Shown here in pieces: positions 46,394-61,408 of a DNA stretch of 64,000 nt (position 1 is its first letter; the number at the start of each line of letters is the position of its first letter). Source of the stretch: an uncultured Anaerolineales bacterium. GTDB taxonomy: Bacteria > Chloroflexota > Anaerolineae > Anaerolineales > UBA11858. The notes under the pieces are model-generated. The model saw only the letters and a list, made by a program, of their open reading frames with translations, was not told the DNA's origin and ran no database searches. The stretch spans positions 12,894-76,893 of the forward strand of contig CAYWFK010000001.1 of assembly GCA_964457375.1 (NCBI GenBank). Reading direction: 5' to 3'. Made by a program: the position numbers and the translations under genes.

Positions 46394-47167
46394 ATGTCCG
46401 AGTTGGTGATTAAAGATTTACACGCAGGAATTGACAACAAAGAGATACTCAAAGGACTCAATCTTACAATCCGGCAGGGTGAAATTCATGCCATCATGGG
46501 GCCTAACGGTACGGGAAAATCGACACTGGCGTATGTGTTGATGGGACATCCTAAGTATACAGTCAGCCGGGGGGAAATCTGGTACAAGGGTGTCAATGTG
46601 TTGGATCTGCCAACTGATGAGCGTGCACACCTGGGTTTGTTTCTTGCTTTTCAATATCCTGTGGGAATTCCCGGGGTAACTGTGGCAAACTTTTTGCGAA
46701 CGGCAATCAACGCGAAGCGCAAGGCTGCGGATCCGGCGTATCGTGGCATTCCGATTCCGGAATTCAGGAAACTGTTGAAGGAACACATGGACTTGTTGAA
46801 AATGGATCACAAGTTCGCGGGCAGGTACCTGAACGATGGCTTTTCGGGGGGGGAGAAAAAACGGGCTGAAGTTTTACAAATGGTCTCTTTGAAGCCGGAA
46901 ATTGCTATTTTGGATGAAACCGATTCGGGGCTGGATATCGACGCGTTGAGAATCGTTTCCGAAGGGGTGAATGCCTTGCGTGGTCCGGATTTCGGAGCGG
47001 TAATCATTACCCATTATCAACGAATTCTCAACTATATCAAGCCGGATTTTGTTCATATTATGCTCAATGGCAGAATCGTCGAGTCGGGGAGTGCAGAATT
47101 GGCTTTGCATTTGGAGGAACAAGGTTACGACTGGGTACGGGAAAAATATGAACCTGCAAGTGCGTAA
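46394..47167 (+). CDS. sufC: Fe-S cluster assembly ATPase SufC
   Basis: [18 protein letters not shown] and [10 protein letters not shown]. Confidence 0.95.
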
Positions 47168-47201
47168 AGCATGGCTTTTCCCGGTATATTTGGAGGCGTA
47201 A

Positions 47202-48608
47202 ATGGATTCGGAAGCAAAAATCTTGGAAGGTGTCGGCGAATACAAGTATGGTTTTCATGACCCTGATACTTATGTGTTCAAGTCGCAGCGCGGATTGAGC
47301 AGGAAGGTCGTTGAACAAATTTCGCACATGAAGGGAGAGCCGGAGTGGATGTTGGCATACCGGCTGAAAGCTTATGAACACTATATCAAACGGCCCATGC
47401 CGACTTGGGGCGGTGACCTTTCCGTATTGAATTTGGACGATATTTATTATTATGTTAAACCAACTGACGGTGAAGGGCGTTCCTGGGATGATATTCCGGA
47501 CACAATCAAGGATACGTTCAATCGTTTGGGAATTCCCGAAGCGGAACAAAAATTCCTGGCTGGGGTCGGTGCGCAGTATGAATCCGAAATGGTGTACCAT
47601 AGTATTCAAAAAGAACTGGAAAAGAAGGGCGTCATCTTCGTGAGTATCGAAGATGGTTTGCGTAATTACCCTGATATCTTCCGGGAGTATTTTGGAAAAA
47701 TCGTACCAATCGAAGACAATAAATTTGCTGCTTTGAACAGTGCGGTGTGGTCCGGCGGTTCTTTTGTTTATGTGCCGCCCGGGGTGAAGGTGGATTTGCC
47801 TTTGCAGGCGTATTTCCGTTTGAATGTTGCCAATATCGGCCAGTTCGAACGCAGCATCATCATCGCGGATGAAGGCTCGCAGGTGCATTATGTCGAAGGC
47901 TGTACTGCTCCCCAGTATTCCACTGATTCGCTTCACAGCGGTGTAATCGAAATCATGGTGAAAAAAGATGCCCGGGTACGGTATTCTACAATTCAGAATT
48001 GGTCTCACAATGTGTACAATCTGGTAACCCAGCGGGCAGTTGTGGAAGAAGGGGGAACGATGGAATGGGTGGATGCGAACATCGGCTCGAAACTGACGAT
48101 GAAATATCCGTCGTGCTATTTGATGGGCCCGGGGGCGCATGGCGAAATTCTTTCGATGGCTTTTGCCGGGAAAGGACAGCACCAGGATACCGGTGGAAAA
48201 ATCATTCATTTTGCCCCGCATACAACCAGCAAGATTGTTTCGAAATCCATCAGCAAGGATAACGGGCGGGCTTCTTACCGCGGTTTGCTAAAAGTTCATC
48301 GTAAGGCAAACGATGTTCGTTCGAGTGTCGTTTGTGATGCCCTGATTTTGGATGATCATTCCCGTTCGGATACTTATCCGTATATCGAAATCGATCAGGA
48401 AGATGTTACTGTCGGACACGAGGCGACGGTTTCGAAAATCGGGGAAGCGCAGCTGTTTTATCTGATGAGCCGCGGTTTGAGCGAGGAAGAAGCAACAACC
48501 ATGGTGGTCTCAGGTTTCATCGAGCCGCTTGTCAAGGAATTGCCGATGGAATACGCAATCGAGATGAACCGGCTGATTCAGCTGCAAATGGAAGGTTCGG
48601 TTGGCTAA
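47202..48608 (+). CDS. sufB: Fe-S cluster assembly scaffold SufB
   Basis: YKYGFHDPD..., [20 protein letters not shown], and C-terminal [22 protein letters not shown]. Confidence 0.95.
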
Positions 48609-48660
48609 AGCCGACGTGCAGGTTTAGATACAAGAAAGAAACGGATACAGGAATAACATT

Positions 48661-50001
48661 ATGGCAAACGCAGTACAAAAAACCGGCAGGAAGACAAGGT
48701 TCGAATTACCGGAGTTCTCGTTCATCCAATCAGAAACGTCTGCTGCCGCCGGTCAGGGCGGTGTTTTGCACGCATTCAGGCAGAATGCTTTGGATGTTTA
48801 TCGGAAGCTGCCTTTTCCCGCAATGACGGATGAGCCATGGCGGAGAACAAGCTTGCGCGGGTTGAAAACTTCGGAACTGCTTCTTGCGGAGGGGCGTAAA
48901 ACAAACGGGCTGGCTGATATTCCGGATGATTTAATCCGGCCTTTGGCGGGTGAATCTCATGGCGGGATGGTAACGCTGACACCAAACGGGGTGACGATTA
49001 CCCTCGATGATGAGCTTGCCGGGCAAGGTGTTATCCTTGCCGATTTGTCGACGGCAAACGAACGTCATCCTGATTTGTTGAAGAAGGTGTTGGGCAAGGT
49101 TGTCAAACCCGATGACGGGAAGTTCGCTGCATTGGCAAGTGCAATGGCCGGACAGGGCGTTCTGATTTATATTCCCAAAGGTGTTCAGGTGGAGAAGCCG
49201 TTGCATAGTATTCTGTGGGCACCGGGAAATGGCCTGGCGTATTTCTCTCACATTTTGGTCTATATGGAGGAAAACGCTTCCTTGACGTTTGTCAACGAAT
49301 CCGCTTCGGATGATGTGGATGGCGGGCAAACGATGCATGCCGGGATCGTTGCCATTCGGATTGGAGATGATTCTCATCTGAAATATATCGAGTTACAGTC
49401 CTTTGGAAAACATATCTGGAATTTTGTGCATGAACGGGTTGATGTCGGACGAAACGCCTCGGTAGATTGGGTGTTCGGGGCAATTGGATCACGGATGACG
49501 AAAAATTTTTCAGATTTGGAATTGACCGGAAGTGGTGCCAGCGGGAGAATGAGCGGGTTTTATTTTACCGATGGCAACCAGCATCTGGATCATGATACGC
49601 AGCAAAATCACCATGCCTCTTTTACAACCAGTGATTTGTTGTACAAGGGTGCATTGAAGGGACGCAGCCGTTCGGTTTGGCAAGGGATGATTTACGTGGC
49701 GCAAGGTGCGCAGCAGGCGGATGGATACCAATCGAACCGGAATTTGATCCTCAGCAAACATGCACGCGCCGACTCGATTCCGGGGCTGGAAATTCTAGCG
49801 AACGATGTGCGTTGTACTCATGGCGCAACTGTCGGCAAAATTGACCCCGAAATGATTTTCTATCTGCAATCACGGGGAATCCCGGAGAAAACCGCTCAAC
49901 GACTGGTTGTCGAAGGGTTCTTCGAACCGATTATGCAGCGAATTCCTTTCGATGGTGTTCGCGAGCGTTTTCAAAATGCAATTCTGGTGAAAATGAATTA
50001 A
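48661..50001 (+). CDS. sufD: Fe-S cluster assembly protein SufD
   Basis: SufB/D beta-helix paralogue (HLDHDTQQNH...RCTHGATVGKIDPEMIFYLQSRGI), immediately after sufB. Confidence 0.9.
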   Translation: MANAVQKTGRKTRFELPEFSFIQSETSAAAGQGGVLHAFRQNALDVYRKLPFPAMTDEPWRRTSLRGLKTSELLLAEGRKTNGLADIPDDLIRPLAGESHGGMVTLTPNGVTITLDDELAGQGVILADLSTANERHPDLLKKVLGKVVKPDDGKFAALASAMAGQGVLIYIPKGVQVEKPLHSILWAPGNGLAYFSHILVYMEENASLTFVNESASDDVDGGQTMHAGIVAIRIGDDSHLKYIELQSFGKHIWNFVHERVDVGRNASVDWVFGAIGSRMTKNFSDLELTGSGASGRMSGFYFTDGNQHLDHDTQQNHHASFTTSDLLYKGALKGRSRSVWQGMIYVAQGAQQADGYQSNRNLILSKHARADSIPGLEILANDVRCTHGATVGKIDPEMIFYLQSRGIPEKTAQRLVVEGFFEPIMQRIPFDGVRERFQNAILVKMN

Positions 50002-50091
50002 TCAACTATTGTTTATACTGTATAATGACTATGTGCGATTTGACAAAAAGGATTATTATCTATTTCAGAAATTCATAGGCAGGAGTGAACG

Positions 50092-50376
50092 TTGGCAAGT
50101 TTACCTTTTAAAGCAACTCCGAATGATGATCGGGATTATCATGTTGGGGATATTGTAGAAGTATATTGTGATCACGAACAAGAAGGCGAGCGGGTTAGGG
50201 GATGGCTTGAAGGTGTGGTTGTGCAGGTAGACCTGAAAATGGTGGCTGTACAATTCCATGAGGCAGTATATCTCACAGATGGCTGGATGGTTCCGGACCA
50301 TGTTCTTTGGTGCCCCAAAGATGCATCGACGATTCGGCGTCCGAAAAAAAGACGGCGTCGCTCGTATAAAAAATAG
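50092..50376 (+). CDS. Small hypothetical protein, an SH3/Tudor-like beta-rich core with a strongly basic tail
   Basis: TTG start with AGGAG 6 nt upstream. HVGDIVEVYCDHEQEGERVRGWLEGVVVQVDLKMVAVQF, then the tail RRPKKRRRRSYKK. It sits between sufD and sufS. Confidence 0.5.
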   Translation: MASLPFKATPNDDRDYHVGDIVEVYCDHEQEGERVRGWLEGVVVQVDLKMVAVQFHEAVYLTDGWMVPDHVLWCPKDASTIRRPKKRRRRSYKK

Positions 50377-50432
50377 TCCCCATTCAATCGTTTGGTTACC
50401 TTTGAACTGTTATCTATCGAAAAGAAGGATGT

Positions 50433-51692
50433 ATGGCCTCAGCCCGAAAAGACCTTAAATCTGTAAAATCATTCGACGTGGAGAAAATCCGGGGTGATTT
50501 CCCGATTTTGGCGCGGGAAGCTCATCCGGGTGTTCCGCTCGTGTATCTTGATTCAACCGCAACCAGCCAAAAGCCGCAACAAGTGCTTGAAGCGATGGAT
50601 GTGTTTTACCGCCATTCGTATGCCAACATCCATCGGGGGGTTCATCAATTGGCAGAAGAAGCGACCGCAGCTTATGAGGCTGCACGGAATAAAGTCGCAA
50701 GTTTCATTGGCGCCAAATCTGCCAAAGAAATTGTCTTCACCCGGAACACAACCGAAGCGATCAATCTGGTGGCAATGACATGGGGCAGGGCATTTTTGCA
50801 CAAAGGCGATCTTGTCGTGTTGACCGAGATGGAGCACCATTCGAATCTTGTGCCCTGGCAAATGCTTGCCGCGGAAAAGGGAATTGTTTTGGATTTCATC
50901 CCCGTGACGGACTCCGGCACACTGGATTTGGCAGCCTACGAGAAAATTCTGGAAAAGAAACCGAAACTGGTTTCATTTACGCAAATGTCCAATGTTTTGG
51001 GGACAATCAACCCGGCGAAGAAAATCATCGAGCTGGCTCACCAGGCAGGTGCACTGGCTTTGGTGGATGGCGCCCAGTCCGTTCCCCATTTGCCGGTCGA
51101 CGTGCTGGATTTGGACGCGGATTTTCTGGCGTTTTCTGCTCACAAGATGTGCGGGCCTTCGGGGATTGGGGCGTTGTTTGCGCGAAAATCCATTCTGGTA
51201 TCAATGCCTCCGTTCATGGGGGGCGGCGATATGATCAAACGGGTAACGCTGGACGGTTTTTCGGCGAACGAAATTCCGTATAAATTCGAAGCGGGAACCC
51301 CTGCAATTGCGGAAGCAGTAGGTTTCGGCGCTGCGGTTGATTACCTGACTGCAATCGGGATGGACAGGATTTTGGCTCATGAACAGGAGCTTGGCGCTTA
51401 TGCGTTGGACAGGCTGGTAGAGGTCCCGGGTATTCATGTTTACGGACCCTCCGCCGAAGAAAAGGGTGCGGTCTTTTCCTTTACACTGGATGGCATCCAT
51501 GCACATGATGTTTCCCAGCTGCTGGACAGGGAAGGAATTGCTGTCAGGGCAGGGCATCATTGTGCCATGCCATTACACGAAAAACTCGGTTTGGCTGCCA
51601 CTTCGAGAGCCAGTTTCTATTTATACAACACCAAAGATGAGGTTGACCGGTTAATCAATGCACTTTACCGGGTCAAGGAAGTATTTGCTTGA
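50433..51692 (+). CDS. sufS: Cysteine desulfurase SufS (class II)
   Basis: YLDSTATSQKP, SAHKMCGPSGIG (PLP lysine) and RAGHHCAMPL (active-site Cys). Confidence 0.95.
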   Translation: MASARKDLKSVKSFDVEKIRGDFPILAREAHPGVPLVYLDSTATSQKPQQVLEAMDVFYRHSYANIHRGVHQLAEEATAAYEAARNKVASFIGAKSAKEIVFTRNTTEAINLVAMTWGRAFLHKGDLVVLTEMEHHSNLVPWQMLAAEKGIVLDFIPVTDSGTLDLAAYEKILEKKPKLVSFTQMSNVLGTINPAKKIIELAHQAGALALVDGAQSVPHLPVDVLDLDADFLAFSAHKMCGPSGIGALFARKSILVSMPPFMGGGDMIKRVTLDGFSANEIPYKFEAGTPAIAEAVGFGAAVDYLTAIGMDRILAHEQELGAYALDRLVEVPGIHVYGPSAEEKGAVFSFTLDGIHAHDVSQLLDREGIAVRAGHHCAMPLHEKLGLAATSRASFYLYNTKDEVDRLINALYRVKEVFA

Positions 51693-51704
51693 GGTTTTTA
51701 TTAG

Positions 51705-52100
51705 ATGGATGACTTGTACCGTGAAATAATTATCGAACGTTATAAAAGCCCTTTCTATCGCGGTGTTCTGGAACCGCATGATATCTCATTCGAAGACGAT
51801 AATCCGGTTTGCGGGGATCATTTGCGAATCGACTTGCGTGTAGATGAGCATGGTAAAATCACGGAGGCGGCGTTTTCCGGCGAGGGGTGTGCAATTTCGC
51901 AGGCTTCTGCGGATTTGTTGATTGAATCGATCATTGGCAAGTCGCTCGATGATGTCAAGCGTTTGACCAAAGATGATATTCTCGAAATGCTTGGGTTCGA
52001 ACTCGGTCCGGTGCGTTTGAAATGTGCCTTGCTTTCGTTGAAGGTGCTCAAAGCCGGGGTATACGGCGTGGGTGAAGCTACTGACGATCTTGTCGAATAA
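51705..52100 (+). CDS. sufU: SufU/IscU-like sulfur-transfer scaffold
   Basis: NPVCGD, GEGCAISQASA and LKCALL. Confidence 0.9.
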   Translation: MDDLYREIIIERYKSPFYRGVLEPHDISFEDDNPVCGDHLRIDLRVDEHGKITEAAFSGEGCAISQASADLLIESIIGKSLDDVKRLTKDDILEMLGFELGPVRLKCALLSLKVLKAGVYGVGEATDDLVE

Positions 52101-53091: not shown

Positions 53092-54252
53092 TTATTCCTT
53101 GAGCGCATGTTTCCAAATGGTTTCCCATGAATCCCTGAGCATATTTCCGAGTACGCGGGTGATTCCCTGGGCCGGTAAAACATCTCCGTCGGGTTCTACG
53201 TAGAGCCAGGCTCTGCCTGCCCCGTCGGGCAGGCTTTCCTTGGTGGTTTCCATGGCTACGGGGTTCTTTGCTGAATACGGAACGGGGAGATCCCAAATCA
53301 AATCCATATGCAGGTCACTGACCGTTCTCGCATAATCCTGCAAGTGTGCAATCGTTTCTTGCGAAGAGGCACTCAAAGAAATTGCGTTCGTGCCCATGGA
53401 TGCCAACCGGTTCAATAAATCCGGCACGCGGTCTTCGATGTGTGGTGTAACGGTGATGTGTACGATGGTATATAAATCATCGGGCAGGATGACTTTCAGC
53501 GCGTCCCAGGATTGCTGATTGTCTGGTTCGAGGGTCATCATCAAGTGGTCGAGGCCGGATTGAAGAAGGGTTTGCAGGTAGTCTTTTTCCCGCAGCCGTA
53601 ACCCATTTGAAAGCAGTCCGGTAACTTGTCCGTTGGTTTCTGCTTTTGCAATCAATGCCGGCAAATCTTCCCGCAGTGTCGGTTCCCCTCCGGTAAAAAC
53701 GATGTGAGGAATGCCCGCATCCCATGCAGTATCGATTATCTGTTCCCATTCGTCTGTGGTGAGTTCCCGATCTACATTTTTGACAGGGGCTGCTTCAGCC
53801 TCGCTGCCATCAGGGAGCCTGTATGTGATTGCGCAGTCCAGCCGATAGGGTGCGGTAATTTTTCCGCTGTATGGGGCGGTTCTTTCGATACCGAGATAGG
53901 TAACCGGATCCAGATCGGGTACATCGATGATGGTGTAAATTTTCTGGCGCACGTCTTCGAAATCGGTTTTAACTTGTTCTTTCGAGACGTGATAGCGGGC
54001 TGCGATTTGTTCAACGGCAGTTTGCGGATCGGTGCCGCGAACGATATGATATGCATATTCCGCAGCTGTCATGTTGAGGTGGAGAACAGTAGCCGCATTG
54101 ATGATCAGGATTCCTGTCCCGTCCGGTTCGATGCGGAGGTGAAGGCGGGTTGGGTTATCTGAATCTGCCGGTGTCTGGGAATGGTATATTCCCGGGGAAA
54201 TTGGTTTTGCTCTCTTGAAGAGATTGCGGAAGAATTGGGTGGTTTTTGCCAT
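53092..54252 (-). CDS. Cysteine-less paralogue of the neighbouring radical-SAM/SPASM enzyme (pseudo-rSAM) that retains the PqqD/RRE-like N-terminal domain
   Basis: ATG at 54252 with AGGAGG 6 nt upstream. It aligns with the 57759..59189 protein (RLHLRIEPDGTGILIINAATVLHLN vs RIHLRVDPDGFGTLIVNANSVTHLN; GIPHIVFTGGEPTLREDLPALIA vs GIPHIVFTGGEPTLRNDLPALIA). CNNDCAHC is replaced by LPDGSEAE, and there is only one Cys in the whole protein. Confidence 0.75.
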   Translation of the reverse strand: MAKTTQFFRNLFKRAKPISPGIYHSQTPADSDNPTRLHLRIEPDGTGILIINAATVLHLNMTAAEYAYHIVRGTDPQTAVEQIAARYHVSKEQVKTDFEDVRQKIYTIIDVPDLDPVTYLGIERTAPYSGKITAPYRLDCAITYRLPDGSEAEAAPVKNVDRELTTDEWEQIIDTAWDAGIPHIVFTGGEPTLREDLPALIAKAETNGQVTGLLSNGLRLREKDYLQTLLQSGLDHLMMTLEPDNQQSWDALKVILPDDLYTIVHITVTPHIEDRVPDLLNRLASMGTNAISLSASSQETIAHLQDYARTVSDLHMDLIWDLPVPYSAKNPVAMETTKESLPDGAGRAWLYVEPDGDVLPAQGITRVLGNMLRDSWETIWKHALKE

Positions 54253-54286
54253 GATAACCTCCTGAGGTTTCACGTATCACGGGGAT

Positions 54287-54889
54287 TTATACCGGAATAT
54301 GGAGATAGAAGCGGACGAGAAACAATGCGAGCGCGGCACCAAGCAGCCCTAATCCGCTGCCAGTCAAGGTGTCGGTAATGAAGTGAGCGCCCAGTACAAT
54401 TCTGCCGGCAGTAACAAGCAGTGCAATTGCGGCGGTAACGTATCCGGCGTATGGCGGAAGCGCAAACAGTATGGGAAAAACCATTGCCAGCAGCCAAATT
54501 CGCAATGCATCTCCGCTGGGGAACGACGTATCTTGCGGAATTTTCGGCTGGTGGATTTCAATCGCTGACGAGCAGCGAAACGGGCGTTTGCGTTTGAAAT
54601 CCTTTTTTAAGGAGCGTTCGATGATTGCGAAAAAAAGATAAGAACCACTGACAATCAAACCGCTAGGTAGATGATGCATCGTCAGCAGGATCAGGGCAAC
54701 GATGAGCACTCCGGAAGTACCCAGTACCCATAATTCACGAAAAAACGGCAGCACAAGGCGCTTTGCTGATAAACGCGGTTGAATGGTTTCGATCCAGCGA
54801 AGTTCCCGGTTGGCGACTGCGGGTATACGGAAGGTAAAACCGGCAGCTACCATCAGAAATCCGAAAATCGTCAGGGGTGTCAGGTTCAT
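54287..54889 (-). CDS. PAP2-family membrane phosphatase (variant motif 2)
   Basis: The motifs are KKDFKRKRP (K-x6-RP), FPSGDA (PSGD instead of PSGH) and GRIVLGAHFITD (R-x5-H-x3-D). The ATG at 54889 overlaps the upstream stop (ATGA). Confidence 0.7.
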   Translation of the reverse strand: MNLTPLTIFGFLMVAAGFTFRIPAVANRELRWIETIQPRLSAKRLVLPFFRELWVLGTSGVLIVALILLTMHHLPSGLIVSGSYLFFAIIERSLKKDFKRKRPFRCSSAIEIHQPKIPQDTSFPSGDALRIWLLAMVFPILFALPPYAGYVTAAIALLVTAGRIVLGAHFITDTLTGSGLGLLGAALALFLVRFYLHIPV

Positions 54890-55809
54890 GGCAGCTGGTC
54901 TAAAAATTGGGGCCAAACCGGATAGAACATGAGCCATTGTTCCGGAGCCATGAGAATGTATTTTTCGATAACCTTGAGAACGGCTTCTCCATTGATGCGG
55001 ATTGATTCAATCAGGTTGTCTTTGTGAATCATTTCGATGGGATCGGAAATGTAAATATCGTACTCCCCGGAGGGAAGCATTCTGGGAGCGACAACGGTAA
55101 TGGGAACGTTGGCTTCGAGTGCCATGCGGATATGCCCTGCCGGAAGAGGACTGGGGTAACCAAAAAAGTTCATCATATGGCGTTTGTTCTGCACCGGCCG
55201 GTCGACTCCGGTGATGACGAAGCCTTTGTTTTTCATCCGGTTCAATGCTCTGGTGTAAAAATCTGCTGAATTGATCGGGACAATTTCCAATCCGGTCAGT
55301 TCCCGAATCTGGTTTTGGATGTGATAGCCGCTTGTCGGTTGTTCGTAAGTGAGCACCATACCCTGCAAGCCGCGATAGCCATTGGCGAGAAACACGAGAT
55401 CGAAATTGCTCATGTGCGGGCCGGCAATGAATCCGCCGATTTTTCCGTTTTGGGTCAGCTCGATCCATTTTTTTGCGTTGGGTGTCAACGGGGCAAGCGA
55501 GAGCAGTTTTTCTTTATCTGAAAACACGTGAAAGAAATCGTACAAACAACGTGCCCCATGCGTAAGCACTTTTTTGACTTGAAGATCCAGCTCTTCGGCG
55601 TTGAGCTGCTTATCGTGTATGATCCATTGGTTCAGGCGAATGGATCGGTTGATTGGTGAATTCCTGCGTTTGAGAATCAAACCGATAATCAACTTGCTGA
55701 TGAAATAGCCCATGCGGGGAGGAAAGACTTTGCCGATTGTCATTCCTGTACGAACCCCAAAGCGGCTGTTGATAATCGTCTGAATATCCATCGACGTTTT
55801 ACTACTCAT
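54886..55809 (-). CDS. LpxL/HtrB/PatA-type (lysophospholipid/lipid A-like) acyltransferase
   Basis: HX4D motif in GPHMSNFD. The length and layout are typical of the Lip_A_acyltrans family. The ATG overlaps the stop of the upstream gene (ATGA at 55806-55809). Confidence 0.65.
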   Translation of the reverse strand: MSSKTSMDIQTIINSRFGVRTGMTIGKVFPPRMGYFISKLIIGLILKRRNSPINRSIRLNQWIIHDKQLNAEELDLQVKKVLTHGARCLYDFFHVFSDKEKLLSLAPLTPNAKKWIELTQNGKIGGFIAGPHMSNFDLVFLANGYRGLQGMVLTYEQPTSGYHIQNQIRELTGLEIVPINSADFYTRALNRMKNKGFVITGVDRPVQNKRHMMNFFGYPSPLPAGHIRMALEANVPITVVAPRMLPSGEYDIYISDPIEMIHKDNLIESIRINGEAVLKVIEKYILMAPEQWLMFYPVWPQFLDQLP

Positions 55810-56426
55810 CGCGAATCAGCATCTTTTGCGGCAACGGGCGGATTTTTGATGAGGCTGTATCCTTCGACGAGTACCGGCAACCCTCTGGCGATGGTCAGAC
55901 TAATGGCGAACCAGGAAAGAATCATAGCTGTGGTGTGAATTGCCGGCTGCCAGGTGCTGCCTTGTGTCATCAGGCTGAGATCGAGCGTGAGAAAAGAAAA
56001 CGCAAGCGCTTTGGCTACACCGTACCCGGAACGCATGATTTTCGAAGATACCAGAAAGCGGCTGATTGGGGAGTGCACCTGATCGAAAGCGGCAACGCCG
56101 TTGCGCATCCCCACGGCGCGGATTGCGTCGACTGTGGTTCCCCGTGTAATGGCGATGAGGGGAATGATGATAGGTATCAAGCCGATTTGTGCAAAGACGA
56201 CCCACAAAACGATTTCCAGCGTTCTGTCTGTGGCGATATCGAGAACGCTGCCCAGCAGGCTGACTTCACCTCTTGCCCGGGCAATGATGCCGTCGACAGT
56301 ATCCATGAGAATAATCAGGATGATGAACGGGACATCCCATAACTGGAGCGTGGGATTGTTCGTGTAGAGTAATCCTACGTAAACGAATAAGAGCGGAAAA
56401 CGTGCCAAAGTAATTAAATTTGCCAT
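55806..56426 (-). CDS. CDP-alcohol phosphatidyltransferase
   Basis: ORF trimmed to the ATG at 56426 (MANLITLARF). The complete signature is DTVDGIIARARGEVSLLGSVLDIATD (D-x2-DG-x2-AR-x8-G-x3-D-x3-D). Confidence 0.85.
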   Translation of the reverse strand: MANLITLARFPLLFVYVGLLYTNNPTLQLWDVPFIILIILMDTVDGIIARARGEVSLLGSVLDIATDRTLEIVLWVVFAQIGLIPIIIPLIAITRGTTVDAIRAVGMRNGVAAFDQVHSPISRFLVSSKIMRSGYGVAKALAFSFLTLDLSLMTQGSTWQPAIHTTAMILSWFAISLTIARGLPVLVEGYSLIKNPPVAAKDADSR

Positions 56427-56430
56427 ATAT

Positions 56431-57744
56431 CTATTGTATTTCTCCAAAACGTTGAAGTGCTTTGTAAATTGCGTTGGTGCCGAAATCAACAGCTTCTACG
56501 GGAATGCGTTCGTTTGCTGCGTGTACCAGCGAAGAAAATTTGAAGTCCGGAGCCAGCTGCATGGGGGTGAAACCATAGGTTTGTATCCCCAGCCGGGAGA
56601 AAAAGCGTGCGTCTGTTACAGCTGCCAGGAAGAAAGGCATCGGATGCCCGGATGGGTCTGCTTCTTTGAGAATCTTTGCAAGCACCGGGAAAAGTGACAT
56701 GTTTGGCGCGCTGGGTCCTTTGTCGGCAGCGACGATTTCGATTTTCAGGTCATCTCCCAAGAGCTGGTGAAGTTCGGTGATCATATCTTCTGCTGAAAAC
56801 CCGGGCAGCAGTCTGCCATCCAGTTGCACGGTTATTTCCGATGGGATGACGTTGACCTTGTCCCCGCCTTTGATGATGGTCGGATTGACCGTGTTATGCA
56901 TCAGAGGATAAAACAATTCGCTGTTCTTGCCAAGAGATTTCAATATCGTATCTGTCAGGGCGGGGTTGAGAATCGATTTGATGATCATGTTTTTGGGAAA
57001 AGGCAGCGCTTCAGCCATGCCTTCGAACATCAATCTGGCAGCACTGGTAACATGCACCGGCAGCCCTTTTTGATCGAGTGTGGTGAGTGCTTTTCCAAGT
57101 TTTGCCATCGCTCCGCTGTGGTGCACGAGGGAGCCATGCCCTGCCTGCCCGTGGAATGTCAGTTTCATCCAGCAAATCTGTTTTTCTGCAACCATAATCG
57201 GATAGAAACGTTTCCCGGCTGTTTCCATGGTGAACCCACCGAATTCCCCAAAGGCGAAACGGACATCCTTGAAAAGTTCCGGATGTTCTTCGACGAGAAA
57301 GGCTGCACCGGCGGAACTTCCTTCTTCTTCGTCTGCCAGCACGGTGAGAATAACATCCCCGGGAAGTTTGACATTGTTTTTCTTTGCCTTGATGAAGGCG
57401 GAAATCATCATGGCAACGGCGCCTTTCATATCCAGCGTTCCGCGCCCCCAAATGTAGCCATCGATGATCTCTCCGCCGAACGGAGGATGTTCCCACTGCT
57501 GGTTTTTGGTGGTAACTACATCGATGTGCCCTTGCAGTAACAAAGGCGGGGCGTTGCCTTCACCTTTCAACCGGGCGACAAGATTAGGACGATGCGGGAA
57601 CTTGGCGTACGTTTGGCTGGCAATACCGTATTGATCGAGTAGTGATTTGATCCAGGCGATTGCCGCTTCTTCGTTACCGGGCGGGTTGGTGGTATCGAAG
57701 CGTACCAGGGTTTGCAGGATGTCGATGGGTTTGAGAGCGTTCAT
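56431..57744 (-). CDS. M20-family metallohydrolase (peptidase/deacylase)
   Basis: GHIDVV, GRGTLDMKG, LADEEEGS and GHGS. The dimerisation-domain layout is typical of ArgE/DapE/CPG2 relatives. Confidence 0.75.
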   Translation of the reverse strand: MNALKPIDILQTLVRFDTTNPPGNEEAAIAWIKSLLDQYGIASQTYAKFPHRPNLVARLKGEGNAPPLLLQGHIDVVTTKNQQWEHPPFGGEIIDGYIWGRGTLDMKGAVAMMISAFIKAKKNNVKLPGDVILTVLADEEEGSSAGAAFLVEEHPELFKDVRFAFGEFGGFTMETAGKRFYPIMVAEKQICWMKLTFHGQAGHGSLVHHSGAMAKLGKALTTLDQKGLPVHVTSAARLMFEGMAEALPFPKNMIIKSILNPALTDTILKSLGKNSELFYPLMHNTVNPTIIKGGDKVNVIPSEITVQLDGRLLPGFSAEDMITELHQLLGDDLKIEIVAADKGPSAPNMSLFPVLAKILKEADPSGHPMPFFLAAVTDARFFSRLGIQTYGFTPMQLAPDFKFSSLVHAANERIPVEAVDFGTNAIYKALQRFGEIQ

Positions 57745-57758
57745 GCGTGCACCTTTTC

Positions 57759-59189
57759 TTAGTCGAAAGTATTCAGGATGACAAAATCTTTGTCCAGTTC
57801 GTCCGGGTCGGGTATCTTGTCGAATGGTTCCAGTACGGGGTGATTGGCTTCAAGGGAAAGCGGGCAGCCGCCGCCGCATTCGACAAGCAGGGAGCAGGAT
57901 TTGCAAACCTTGGGTACGTAATTCCGCTCTCGCAAATTGACCGCCAGTTCATGATTCCAGATCGATGTCCAGGGGTCTTTGAGGATATTCCCCAATTGGA
58001 CGTAATATGATTGGCAAGGAAGAACACCGCCATCCGGTTCGATGCACATATTGTAAAGGGCTGCGGTGCAACCTTTGACGCCTAATCCGTATTGTGTCGG
58101 ATCGAAATGGCAGTATTGTGTCGGGGTATACCAGATTAATCGCTGGTTGTATTTCGATGTTTTTTTGTGAGCCAGTTCAAGAAGGGAGGGGAGGACTTGA
58201 TCATCCAGCCCTGTACCGACTGTTTTCCCGTGCCCCGAATAAATCAGGGCATTCAAACCGACTGTGGGTATGCCCAATTCTCCGAGAAAATCCAGGGTTT
58301 CACCAAGTTTGCGGTAATTCGCCTGGAGCATTGTTGTGTTCGTCATGAGATAGAGTTTGCTCGCGAGGATGTTTTTCAAGCCTTGCAAGGTTTGTTTCCA
58401 GGCACCTTTTTTGTTTACCATAAAGTCGTGAATTTCCGGGTCGTGGGATTCAAAAGTGACTTGTACATGGTCCAGTCCGGCGTCGATCAGTTCCTGAAGA
58501 AATTTCTCATCGCTCAATCGTCTTCCATTGGTGTTCAATCCGGTGATTTGCCCGTTATTTTCTGCGTGGGCAATCAATGCCGGCAGGTCGTTTCGCAGGG
58601 TGGGTTCTCCGCCGGTGAAAACGATGTGGGGAATACCAAGTTCCCACGTTTTGTCGATGACCTGTTTCCATGCTTCTGTATCCAGTTCGGGGTAATTCCG
58701 GGCACGGGCGTTGTAGCAGTGGGCGCAGTCATTGTTGCAGCGGTAAGTAACTGCCAAATCCATACGGTAGGGGGCTGTCGGTCTGGCGCTAAAAGGGGCA
58801 TCGATTTCAAGATCGTCGAAGGTGCAGATTGCGCATTGAGCCGGGTCCAGCAAAGCATCGATGCGGGCAGTCAAATTGGCGAAGTCTTTCTTTGCAGTTT
58901 TTGGAGAAACCTGAAAAGCTTTTGTCAGTCTGGAGATGACGTTTTTTTGAGGATAACCTTGTAAATAGGCATAAGCCATCCAGGTGGCGGTAGGGTTGAG
59001 ATGAGTGACAGAATTGGCGTTGACAATCAGCGTTCCGAAACCGTCCGGGTCGACCCGCAGGTGAATACGGCTTTTCGATTGGGGTCCTTCGTTGCGGAAA
59101 TGGTGAATGCCGACGATTTGCCTGATAAGAGGCAAATCGTCGGTGGTTTCTACCGTGTGGTTTTTTTTGATCCCGAACAGATTCATCAT
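57759..59189 (-). CDS. Radical SAM/SPASM-domain enzyme with an N-terminal PqqD/RRE-like domain (RiPP-maturase architecture)
   Basis: The 4Fe-4S/SAM motif is CNNDCAHC, with FTGGEPTLR. The SPASM cysteines are GCTAALYNMCIEPDGGVLPC...GNI...CKSCSLLVECGGGCP. The first ~115 aa have a beta-beta-beta-alpha-alpha-alpha pattern (HLRVDPDGFGTLIVNANSVTHLNPTATWMAYAYLQG...VISRLTKAFQVSPKTAKKDFANLTARIDALL). Confidence 0.8.
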   Translation of the reverse strand: MMNLFGIKKNHTVETTDDLPLIRQIVGIHHFRNEGPQSKSRIHLRVDPDGFGTLIVNANSVTHLNPTATWMAYAYLQGYPQKNVISRLTKAFQVSPKTAKKDFANLTARIDALLDPAQCAICTFDDLEIDAPFSARPTAPYRMDLAVTYRCNNDCAHCYNARARNYPELDTEAWKQVIDKTWELGIPHIVFTGGEPTLRNDLPALIAHAENNGQITGLNTNGRRLSDEKFLQELIDAGLDHVQVTFESHDPEIHDFMVNKKGAWKQTLQGLKNILASKLYLMTNTTMLQANYRKLGETLDFLGELGIPTVGLNALIYSGHGKTVGTGLDDQVLPSLLELAHKKTSKYNQRLIWYTPTQYCHFDPTQYGLGVKGCTAALYNMCIEPDGGVLPCQSYYVQLGNILKDPWTSIWNHELAVNLRERNYVPKVCKSCSLLVECGGGCPLSLEANHPVLEPFDKIPDPDELDKDFVILNTFD

Positions 59190-59204: not shown

Positions 59205-60866
59205 TTAGCGGCCGCCGCCGGCACAGGCACAGGCACATCCGGCACAAGCGCAGGCGCAAGCGCAACCACCACCGCCGCCATGGTAACCGCCGGAAGAAGA
59301 CGATACCGGAGCCGGGTTGGTTTTTTCGGTAATGCCGCTGGTGAAGCTGGTAATATCACCGACCACATTGCTCGAAAAATTTTGAAGGCCGGTAACAACC
59401 GAAGCTGCAAAAGTACTTCCGGGCAGCGTAGGCATGGAGAAACTTCCGCCGCTTCCCGATGTCGATGGCTGGGAAGATGACGTTGCCGGGGATCCGTGCC
59501 AACCCGGATCATAACGGTTCCACCATACCGGTACGAAAACCGGTCCCTGACTGAAGACGTCTTTGGTTCGGTCTTCGAAATCCTTGTCGAGCATTGTCCA
59601 TCCCATATACTCGTCGTATTTTTTACTTTTCACTTCGGGGGTATCCGCCGCTTTGATTTGCTGCCATGCCTTATCCATAATTTTTTCGTAATAGGCAATG
59701 GTTTCCTTGCGGCTGAACCCTTTCATTTTCTTGCTGACGCTTTTGATTAAATCGATGATCAATGCCTGGAGTTTCTTTTTTCTCCTTGCCGGAGATTTTT
59801 CGTCGAAGGCTTCGAGAAAATCGATTTCGTATTTCCGCAGACCGGCAGGGCGCGGTTCGGTCGTTTTGATTTTTAGAGGCTCTTTTGCGATGACTTTTGC
59901 AGCATTCTTTTTGATTACGCTGAAAAGTATCATGGTCAGAATCTTGTCGACCGGATGTTCCATCAGAATGGCTGCTTCGACTGCTGTCAAACCGCGCTTG
60001 ATGCCATGCCCTTCGATACTGAGCTTGGGCGGCAGGTATTGTAATTTGCGTTTTTTGCTGGTCGTCTTACCTAACCAGGCGAAGAAAGCGAACATTGCCA
60101 GCACGGAACCCCAGCATGTGCAGCCGAAGATGGTATCTTTGCTTATCCCCAGCGTTTCGAAAAAGCCCGGGGTGACGATCGCAGTTTTGGGGACATAAGT
60201 TTTGGGGAAGGATGCCCCGAACTTGTAGGTTGAATGCCCGTTGGCTTGCGGATTGTGCCACGCGTAGACGACGCGTCCATGTTTGTCAAGATAGGTTTCC
60301 GGGGTTTGCGGAAAACCGTCAGGGGCTTTATGCCATTTGGGTTCTTCCGGTTTTACCCCCGGTGGCAGGTGAAAAACAACCGTCAGGTCTGTCGTTCCAT
60401 AGACATATTCGTCTCCGAACCAGGTGGGGGCAAAAACTGCGCTGGCGTATTCCTTGTTTTTGGAATCCGTGTAGAGAACATGCGTGATGCCTTTGATGTA
60501 GAGATGAACCTTTCCGGTATCTCCGGGCTGGATAGCATGACTCCCCAGTCCCAAAGCAACGCCGTTATCCACATAGGGGGAAGTATCGATGTCCGTTATC
60601 GTCAATCCGTCGACATCTGCTGAAACATTGGCAATGTCGAAATGTTCGTTTGGAAAACCGACATCGACATAATCGATGGGATCTGCACTGGTGCTGTTGG
60701 AGAAGATGAAAACGTAGTCGATGGAGAGCGTGCCATCTTTTTCCCAGTAGGCGTTTACGATTTCTTTGTCGAGGCTGAAATAGTATGTTTGGGATAATGC
60801 CGGTGAAGGAATGGCAAACAGGAATATCAGCAAAAGTAACCCGGCGATGATTTTCTTTTTGAACAT
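59205..60866 (-). CDS. DUF2207-like membrane protein ending in a Gly-flanked Cys-Ala repeat tail
   Basis: ATG at 60866 with GGAGA upstream. Signal peptide MFKKKIIAGLLLLIFLFAIPSPALSQ, then an extracytoplasmic beta-rich domain (YYFSLDKEIVNAYWEKDGTLSIDYVFIF), a TM segment, a Lys-rich region, and the C-terminus ...SSSGGYHGGGGGCACACACAGCACACAGGGR. Confidence 0.7.
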   Translation of the reverse strand: MFKKKIIAGLLLLIFLFAIPSPALSQTYYFSLDKEIVNAYWEKDGTLSIDYVFIFSNSTSADPIDYVDVGFPNEHFDIANVSADVDGLTITDIDTSPYVDNGVALGLGSHAIQPGDTGKVHLYIKGITHVLYTDSKNKEYASAVFAPTWFGDEYVYGTTDLTVVFHLPPGVKPEEPKWHKAPDGFPQTPETYLDKHGRVVYAWHNPQANGHSTYKFGASFPKTYVPKTAIVTPGFFETLGISKDTIFGCTCWGSVLAMFAFFAWLGKTTSKKRKLQYLPPKLSIEGHGIKRGLTAVEAAILMEHPVDKILTMILFSVIKKNAAKVIAKEPLKIKTTEPRPAGLRKYEIDFLEAFDEKSPARRKKKLQALIIDLIKSVSKKMKGFSRKETIAYYEKIMDKAWQQIKAADTPEVKSKKYDEYMGWTMLDKDFEDRTKDVFSQGPVFVPVWWNRYDPGWHGSPATSSSQPSTSGSGGSFSMPTLPGSTFAASVVTGLQNFSSNVVGDITSFTSGITEKTNPAPVSSSSGGYHGGGGGCACACACAGCACACAGGGR

Positions 60867-60944: not shown

Positions 60945-61316
60945 TTACCATTTGGGGTCTTCGGTAAGTTGATAAGTTGTATGGCAGTAGGGGCAGGTAA
61001 TCACCGGAGCGCCGGCAACCATCTTGATATCACCCTTGGTCAACGCTGCACCGCAAGATTTGCATTTCAGAGTATCCATATTGACATTGGACGGCAAATC
61101 GATGTTGAGGGTGACATTTTCGCCGTTGCCAGCGGCAGACATTGCTTTTGATTTGCCCAGAAACCAGATAATGCCGAAGCCAATGCCTACACTGATAACA
61201 CCGACGATGAGCCAACCGATTTGCCCTTGCGGGCTGAATGTTGCCCAGATGAAGAGAATGCCAAAGAAAACCAAGATAGCAGCGAAAATGTACCCGATAA
61301 TTTTACCGGCTGACAT
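60945..61316 (-). CDS. Small membrane protein (2 TM segments) with a C-terminal Cys4 zinc ribbon
   Basis: ATG at 61316 preceded by GGAGG. Two hydrophobic helices are followed by CKSCGA...CPYCHTTY. Confidence 0.6.
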   Translation of the reverse strand: MSAGKIIGYIFAAILVFFGILFIWATFSPQGQIGWLIVGVISVGIGFGIIWFLGKSKAMSAAGNGENVTLNIDLPSNVNMDTLKCKSCGAALTKGDIKMVAGAPVITCPYCHTTYQLTEDPKW

Positions 61317-61408
61317 GATAACCTCCATTGAAATGACGGTTTTTGTTTAATTGCTGGGTTGTTTTCATCATTTTTTCTATCGATACGATTAAAACACCTT
61401 GCCATGCA

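Follow-up and report, generated by a model that had tools for sequence, protein, structure and literature searches.

Introduction

Pseudo-radical-SAM proteins, which resemble radical S-adenosylmethionine (SAM) enzymes without carrying their Cys triad, have already been annotated in SPASM systems; those of IPR026418 co-occur with a radical SAM enzyme and a precursor, and have, while their function is unassigned, been hypothesised to be partners of the radical SAM enzyme (PMC10352776). Here we describe such a protein (hereafter pseudo-rSAM) from an uncultured Anaerolineales bacterium of the Chloroflexota (contig CAYWFK010000001.1), encoded within a stretch of 64,000 nt that we refer to as the window and to which all coordinates and strands apply. 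It is the paralogue of an active-looking radical SAM protein (rSAM) in the same window, and the rSAM gene in turn follows that of a membrane protein ending in an invariant Cys-Ala (CA) tail. Like the GG-Bacteroidales pseudo-rSAMs (TIGR04150/IPR026418), the protein is radical-SAM-like, lacks the Cys triad and has its gene next to those of a true rSAM maturase and a precursor, and the parallel drawn by a first-pass annotation of the window with the pseudo-rSAM proteins of SPASM systems is an apt one (IPR026418, PMC10352776). It differs from them in having neither auxiliary ligands nor a SPASM C-terminus, in carrying an N-terminal RRE, in being paired with the tail of a 555-aa membrane protein instead of a peptide with a GG leader, and in belonging to the Chloroflexota. 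The GG-Bacteroidales proteins keep a Cys-containing SPASM domain.

The haloarchaeal pseudo-SAM/SPASM family TIGR04347 is likewise a curated radical SAM/SPASM homologue without a functional SAM-cluster motif, although its lineage and context are unlike those described here. Against this family the pseudo-rSAM scores 44.1 bits, where the cut-off is 525, with a match local to residues 160-246, and it is not a member; TIGR04150/IPR026418 is absent from its 25 best NCBIfam matches, which extend down to 23.9 bits. Membership in other curated radical SAM families was rejected as well, all scores being far under the cut-off. By these scores, the Chloroflexota family appears to match neither of the two annotated pseudo-rSAM families. 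Our literature search found nothing on a pseudo-rSAM/CA-tail system, the sole relevant text being the remark on IPR026418 cited above.

Among proteins of solved structure, SkfB, SuiB and PqqE (with PqqD) share the N-terminal RRE, the partial TIM barrel and a C-terminal extension with the pseudo-rSAM (Foldseek E ~1e-11 to 1e-12). However, they bind the radical SAM cluster plus one or two auxiliary clusters, whereas the pseudo-rSAM has none and no reductive SAM cleavage. Beyond radical SAM proteins, catalytically dead paralogues are known as subunits of active enzymes, as in METTL14 with METTL3 and ADAT3 with ADAT2, and YcaO cyclodehydratases have an inactive E1-like, RRE-bearing C protein. What these have in common with the present case is a duplicate that loses catalysis, keeps its fold and substrate recognition, and serves an active partner. 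Their folds are unrelated to that of the pseudo-rSAM, however, and for the latter it is synteny that points to a complex.

Results

Loss of the cluster ligands

The open reading frame (ORF) list gives the gene as a GTG-started frame of 393 aa, 53092-54273(-), within which the ATG at 54252 yields a protein of 386 aa. Orthologues align from this Met as residue 1, which supports the 386-aa start, and the perfect AGGAGG ribosome-binding site of the first-pass annotation indeed lies 5 nt ahead of it. BLASTP of the listed frame against 57759-59189(-) aligned the two paralogues end to end, with 37% identity over 396 columns (241 bits, E 1e-79), in agreement with the earlier statement that they align along their full length. 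The same annotation had proposed that the radical SAM Cys motif is replaced, that the terminal SPASM Cys block is absent and that a single Cys remains in 386 residues, and each of these points was borne out. The Cys triad that follows beta-1 is absent, with RLPDGSEAEAAPVKN in its place; in the pairwise alignment, LDCAITYRLPDGSEAEAAPVKN of the pseudo-rSAM stands opposite MDLAVTYRCNNDCAHCYNARARNY in the CX3CX2C loop of the paralogue, and the loop YRCNNDCAHCYNARA is paired with YRLPDGSEAEAAPVK, and the comparison of the two families gives the same picture. The first SPASM hairpin is retained without its cysteines, GCTAALYNMCIEPDGGVLPCQSY pairing with AGRAWLYVEPDGDVLPAQGI, and CIEPDGGVLPCQ of the paralogue with VEPDGDVLPAQ. 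The pseudo-rSAM ends about 23 residues past this hairpin, and the CKSCSLLVECGGGC block is therefore missing. In all, it contains one Cys (C140), compared with 13 in the active paralogue. The claim that it cannot bind the radical SAM or auxiliary clusters is thus true as regards its own ligands.

A comparison of 81 pseudo-rSAM with 66 active sequences shows what was lost, kept and gained at the level of the families. Lost are the Cys triad, all SPASM cysteines and the SPASM C-terminus. The CX3CX2C loop has been swapped for a conserved L.P....AP..RV.REL, and two 14-residue deletions in the barrel coincide with ES...HD..M....GA and GLNALIY.G.G of the active family, which we take, by analogy with other radical SAM enzymes, to be the ribose and beta-6 SAM-site motifs. 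Judging from sequence, radical chemistry has been irreversibly lost in the pseudo-rSAM, because there are no cluster ligands, the SAM-site segments are eroded and the SPASM domain is truncated. Kept in both families are the RRE strands (R.HLR and NA....H.N), AP.R.D.A.TY, PH..FTGGE.TLR.DL..LI..AE..G, GLDH, E.DG.V.P.Q and GN.L...W..I; the GGE motif is still present in sequence, and invariant, as FTGGEPTLR in the pseudo family.

Gained, and invariant in the pseudo family, are C140, the L.P....AP..RV.REL segment already mentioned, GLL.DG, VH.T, PVPYS...P...E and GAG..W.Y, with C140 conserved in at least 90% of the members. The former active-site face carries the pseudo-specific invariant polar residues Y144, D216, H265, T267, S292 and S294, along with PDLDP and PVPYS. 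Because such new invariant residues have been gained, this face appears to have been remodelled under selection, rather than abandoned. The linker between RRE and barrel follows the same pattern: an invariant PDLDP of the pseudo family (53905-53919(-), residues 112-116) takes the place of a Cys that is conserved in the active family (…P…C…; 58824-58835(-), residues 119-122) and possibly serves there as an additional cluster ligand.

Retention of the fold

An AlphaFold2 model of the pseudo-rSAM, based on a 121-sequence alignment (pLDDT 83.9, pTM 0.85), begins with an N-terminal domain of strands and helices, continues with a beta/alpha barrel and closes with a hairpin and a helix at the C-terminus. 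The N-terminal domain comprises strands 21-26, 36-41, 47-51 and 55-59 and helices 61-72, 76-87 and 91-110, with a pLDDT of 87-97. By this predicted fold it would qualify as an RRE, with putative peptide binding, and the motif R.HLR...G...L..NA.T.LHLN is common to the pseudo-rSAM and its active paralogue. In the Pfam scan PqqD (PF05402) reaches 18.9 bits in the pseudo-rSAM, below its cut-off of 23.4; a precomputed PF05402 match is present on several orthologues. The best Foldseek matches in the PDB are SkfB (381 aligned columns, E 8e-12) and SuiB, in both cases with the N-terminal RRE included in the alignment, followed by PqqE, BlsE and MoaA, and a sequence profile search of the PDB returned PqqE at 5.7e-17 and also SkfB. 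PF04055 (Radical_SAM) scores 48.6 bits against a cut-off of 29.5, covering profile positions 22-110 only, whereas in the active paralogue Radical_SAM is matched end to end and SPASM as well. By homology and fold, the pseudo-rSAM therefore belongs to the radical SAM superfamily, and model and Foldseek matches agree with the first-pass annotation that RRE-like domain and barrel core were kept. PF13186 (SPASM) was not matched in the pseudo-rSAM, of which only the EPDGDVLP.QG hairpin corresponds to that domain, the CX2CX5CX3C block lying beyond its end. The conserved segments 150-160 and 326-343 form low-confidence loops in the model, as would be expected of interaction segments.

Purifying selection on the pseudo-rSAM

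The 120 best database matches of the pseudo-rSAM, which derive from Anaerolineae/Chloroflexota metagenome bins, are 55-66% identical to it and about 381 aa long. All 120 lack the CX3CX2C motif, with one to three Cys each, which speaks against a sequencing error that removed the cysteines. About 40 columns are invariant over 121 sequences, the active paralogue included. Homologues P0004-P0116 carry the public names 'radical SAM protein' (NCBI) and 'organic radical activating enzyme' (JGI), names that are functionally wrong for the whole pseudo family.

A species scan with one genome per species yielded 588 relatives, among them matches to the active paralogue, as one pattern fits both. Locus counts given below rest on the best 80 of these 588, all of them Chloroflexota, and most gene contexts stem from metagenome bins. 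The gene, which the first-pass annotation had called intact, has full-length orthologues in 80 of the 80 fetched loci. The ratio of nonsynonymous to synonymous substitutions (dN/dS; Nei-Gojobori, from multiple alignments) is 0.03-0.25 for the pseudo-rSAM gene in the closest genome pairs, a range shared by the genes of the active rSAM and of the tail protein in these pairs; for the three genes in this order, the medians over 136 unsaturated pairs are 0.27, 0.21 and 0.28. The orthologues thus show neither the frameshifts nor the relaxed selection of a gene in decay, and purifying selection acts on it as it does on the catalytic paralogue.

A conserved cassette around an invariant Cys tail

When the window proteins were compared to the 80 loci by tblastn, a conserved co-directional cassette emerged, consisting of a Zn-ribbon membrane protein, the CA-tail membrane protein, the active rSAM, the pseudo-rSAM and a class-I methyltransferase (Table 1). 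Both the rSAM and the tail gene are found upstream of the pseudo-rSAM gene in 64 of the 69 loci that were counted as informative for having at least 3 kb of upstream sequence, and in 22 of these the two paralogues are direct neighbours. The methyltransferase lies downstream of the pseudo-rSAM in 65/71 loci, within 300 nt in 26 of them, and overlaps its stop codon in the divergent-subclade loci L085 and L086. Fusions of the pseudo-rSAM with the methyltransferase (P0287, P0367) were considered as further evidence and rejected, their junctions resembling frameshifted overlapping genes. The Zn-ribbon gene is directly upstream of the CA-tail gene in 61 of the 80 loci and in the distant locus L082, and is probably the fifth member of the cassette.

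The 19-residue tail CACACACAGCACACAGGGR terminates 112 of 120 database homologues of the membrane protein as well as the proteins of about 70 species-level loci (carriers are L002-L079, L081, L082, L086 and L093), even though the proteins themselves are just 45-62% identical. It forms an invariant 4+3 array of seven cysteines, and is encoded by 69 distinct DNA sequences with free synonymous variation at every codon, from which it follows that selection acts on the peptide and not on a DNA repeat. In the model, the protein has a signal helix, a confident beta-sandwich ectodomain, one transmembrane helix and a cytoplasmic winged-helix plus helical region; next come a conserved helix (…FAASVVTG.Q.FS..VVGNVTDFTS.IT.KTNP.P…), a disordered Gly/Ser linker and the tail, which is predicted to be disordered and cytoplasmic. 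A fold search recognised only the ectodomain, as a generic beta-sandwich like those of ribophorin I/Ost1 and the N-domain of M1 aminopeptidases, and a sequence search returned no solved structural relative. The Pfam/NCBIfam scan gave no family for the protein, which is annotated as 'hypothetical', with DUF2207_C at E 0.065 in a lone member; it may be a distant relative of DUF2207. A second CA-tail paralogue of about 770 aa, with the same tail, stands in tandem with the one of about 555 aa in L008, L009 and L020 (P0127, P0130, P0147 and others).

The rSAM gene starts 15 nt past the stop codon of the tail gene. By analogy, this layout may be said to mimic that of a leader and core followed by their maturase, except that the 'precursor' is here fused to a membrane protein. 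As for the chemistry, thioether (sactionine-type) cross-linking or Cys oxidation would be the obvious options for an rSAM/SPASM enzyme acting on such a tail.

Table 1. Positions of the cassette genes and of their domains and motifs in the window.
Feature	Position	Strand	Remarks
Small membrane protein, 127 aa, C-terminal Zn-ribbon-like CxxC...CxxC	60945-61328	-	Two N-terminal membrane helices
CA-tail membrane protein, ~555 aa	59205-60872	-	Without Pfam or NCBIfam family
Invariant 19-residue C-terminal tail CACACACAGCACACAGGGR	59208-59264	-	Presumed substrate or core; from homologue comparison
Active-looking paralogue, 476 aa	57759-59189	-	RRE + radical SAM (CNNDCAHC) + full SPASM (C..G....C ... 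CKSCSLLVECGGGC)
Inserted block: M20 peptidase, CDP-alcohol phosphatidyltransferase, acyltransferase, PAP2 phosphatase	54287-57744	-	Not core
AGGAGG ribosome-binding site	54258-54263	-	Read from sequence; 5 nt upstream of ATG at 54252
Pseudo-radical-SAM protein, 386 aa	53092-54252	-	RRE + degenerate partial TIM barrel + Cys-free SPASM hairpin remnant
RRE-like (PqqD-like) N-terminal domain, residues ~20-110	53923-54195	-	Model: four strands + three helices
Degenerate radical-SAM barrel, residues ~135-320	53293-53850	-	Alignment + Pfam
First SPASM beta-hairpin remnant, GAG..W.Y.EPDGDVLP.QG	53158-53223	-	Invariant, Cys-free; remaining SPASM deleted
Class-I SAM methyltransferase, 251 aa	52330-53085	-	Begins 6 nt past pseudo-rSAM stop

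Recurrence and variation in the wider family

A profile search over 1.84 billion cluster representatives (E <= 1e-30) retrieved 166 proteins. About 40 full-length representatives of 50% clusters form a short, Cys-free pseudo clade without CX3CX2C and SPASM cysteines, and the full-length relatives also include many active forms whose SPASM domain is complete. In what is only a rough neighbour-joining tree, several triad-less long forms (404-460 aa) branch with the active clade or apart from it. Two of these long forms share a locus with an active rSAM: in L093 the order is tail protein, Cys-less long form (P0349, with a degenerate 'FCGGGTP'), active rSAM and methyltransferase, and in L082 it is Zn-ribbon, tail protein, Cys-less long form (P0302), an unrelated gene and active rSAM (start L082:5219). 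The pair of active and inactive proteins thus recurs in a second, divergent lineage, with its order swapped and its SPASM domain decayed but not truncated.

Other loci have one partner only. An active rSAM with neither pseudo-rSAM nor methyltransferase is present in L088, which looks archaeal (tail …SCACACAGGGIR), and in L091 (…CACACACVSCACACACAGGGGCT). By contrast, L083:5822-8460, L084:86-3108 and L087:1672-4754 encode a homologous membrane protein without the Cys tail, followed by a triad-less rSAM-like protein only; start and stop of this gene pair overlap, and P0315 retains the CX2CX5CX3C block. Of these loci, L083 has r-protein L15e and L087 an MJ1316 domain, which gives them an archaeal look, and L084 has no such marker. 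As such, the Cys tail accompanies the active rSAM, which is consistent with the tail being the substrate of the rSAM. The persistence of triad-less relatives beside the membrane protein where the tail is gone suggests a second, non-radical role of the family, tied to the membrane protein.

Genes between and around the paralogues

In the window, four unrelated genes separate the two paralogues. Lipid genes occupy this position in 18 of the 80 loci and an M20 gene in two, and the block is a lineage-specific insertion. Its CDP-alcohol phosphatidyltransferase is closest to (archaetidyl)inositol-phosphate synthases and its acyltransferase of a lipid-A-type or PIM-type; for the lipid trio found in the same slot in those 18 loci, a link to the membrane protein and hitch-hiking are both possible. 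Between 61328 and 52330 all window genes point the same way and either overlap or lie no more than 57 nt apart; the minus-strand terminator-like sites within this run are weak (stems of 5-7 bp), while a strong terminator-like hairpin at 61456-61428 follows the PhoU-like gene upstream. The first-pass annotation assigned the pseudo-rSAM to the same operon as the rSAM. Direction, tight gaps and weak internal terminators make a shared operon plausible.

Convergent with the cassette lies an operon for iron-sulphur (Fe-S) cluster assembly resembling suf (46394-52100(+)), whose SufC, SufB, SufD, SufS and SufU were recognised by eye from the translations. In about 19-26 of the 80 loci, suf homologues lie no more than 10 kb from the pseudo-rSAM, an adjacency that may be plain synteny among related genomes. 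In one locus (L077:7684-8963) the active rSAM is split across frames, upstream of an intact pseudo-rSAM, which is either a long-read assembly frameshift or a genuine inactivation.

Discussion

In this study, we show that the pseudo-rSAM is homologous to an RRE-radical SAM-SPASM maturase, and that it has lost all cluster ligands, retained the fold, stayed under purifying selection and kept a conserved gene neighbourhood. It is most likely a functional protein that arose from a tandem duplicate of that maturase. So what does a radical SAM protein do once it has lost every ligand of its clusters? The reading that we favour, with moderate confidence, is that of a non-catalytic binding or adaptor subunit that couples the CACACACAGCACACAGGGR tail to the rSAM and the methyltransferase. 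We infer a duplication followed by subfunctionalisation, in which the active copy would have kept the radical chemistry and the pseudo copy the recognition domain, a remodelled cavity, the barrel scaffold and the first SPASM hairpin. The RRE of the pseudo-rSAM may bind peptide, docking onto the conserved helix just before the tail (…VVGNVTDFTS.IT.KTNP.P…), and the dead barrel would hold the tail or the modified tail. In such a complex, the substrate would be coupled to the active rSAM as well as to the co-translated methyltransferase, an enzyme that itself lacks a recognition domain.

Several observations weigh against this adaptor role, or at least narrow it. In L036 and L060 the pseudo-rSAM comes directly after the tail gene and the available flanks contain no rSAM, and in L017 and L038 the pseudo-rSAM stands alone. 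Furthermore, CA-tail systems with an active rSAM only (L088, L091) exist, and hence the pseudo subunit is not needed everywhere for the core reaction. The first-pass annotation had suggested a non-catalytic partner of the rSAM. That the rSAM specifically is this partner is less certain: translational coupling to the methyltransferase is as frequent as adjacency to the rSAM, L036 and L060 have no rSAM in between, and active rSAM systems do without the pseudo-rSAM. Because of the methyltransferase coupling, these two loci and the active-only systems, the protein is better described as a subunit of a tail-maturation module than as a chaperone of the rSAM. The word non-catalytic holds as regards radical chemistry, the protein having no cluster ligands of its own, but the invariant polar residues on the former active-site face could equally mark a new catalytic site.

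That last point leads to the alternative of a neo-functionalised enzyme, whose barrel would have acquired a new, non-radical activity on the tail or on the rSAM product, such as hydrolysis, elimination or isomerisation. Where the barrel strands end on their C-terminal side, the residues have not decayed but have been replaced by the invariant Y144, D216, H265, T267, S292, S294 and C140; the PDLDP and PVPYS..NP...E motifs are invariant too, and selection matches that on the catalytic paralogue in strength. A specific binding cavity, however, equally predicts invariant residues, and all matches in Pfam, NCBIfam, PDB sequences and Foldseek are to radical SAM proteins, with no non-radical enzyme family among them. 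We regard a new enzyme as unlikely, though a credible candidate.

The pseudo-rSAM might also act as a regulator or holdase that sequesters the helix or the tail, either timing or limiting modification by the rSAM, or protecting the seven thiols until modification or metal loading. Sharing its RRE motifs with the active paralogue, it could compete for the same site, and its gene belongs to the same co-directional run. Yet the coupling to the methyltransferase and the conserved, remodelled barrel exceed what a simple competitor would need, and the Pfam scan found no regulatory domain, which makes such a function rather improbable.

A more speculative option, to which we give a very low probability, starts from a radical-SAM-like fold with a cluster-independent job bound to the membrane protein. 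In Anaerolineae, the 'dead' enzyme would on this view supply the apo-half of an Fe-S protein made of two chains and tethered to the membrane, in which the seven tail cysteines and C140 provide ligands in trans for a composite metal or Fe-S site. A cluster-independent job would explain the repeated rise of Cys-less forms and their persistence without the Cys tail. The invariant 4+3 arrangement of cysteines in a cytoplasmic segment predicted to be disordered, the conservation of C140 and the suf operon beside the cassette in about 26 of the 80 loci all fit this idea, and a substrate Cys reportedly ligates an auxiliary cluster in the sactisynthase CteB. This evidence is purely circumstantial, however: systems with an active rSAM only carry the same kind of tail, as befits a substrate, and the suf adjacency is possibly simple synteny among related genomes. 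Finally, a decaying pseudogene or sequencing artefact, for which the absence of every catalytic ligand might be quoted, can be dismissed in view of the intact ORF and its full-length orthologues, the motif loss common to all 120 homologues, the invariant columns and the low dN/dS in close pairs.

No curated pseudo-rSAM family is known to have a tested function. It is by their Cys motif that radical SAM proteins are defined, annotated and mined, and the pseudo family described here is labelled as such though unable to bind the cluster. With a large family of dead duplicates under strong selection and paired with an active paralogue, the retention of a dead radical SAM scaffold becomes testable. 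The tail-maturation system, apparently undescribed so far, occurs widely in Anaerolineae and has relatives in other bacteria and on archaeal-looking contigs. What it presumably modifies is the invariant Cys-Ala tail of a large membrane protein, rather than a small peptide. Moreover, the family offers a natural series from enzyme to pseudoenzyme, leading from members with full clusters, through those that have lost the triad and most SPASM cysteines, to those in which everything has been lost and the protein truncated.

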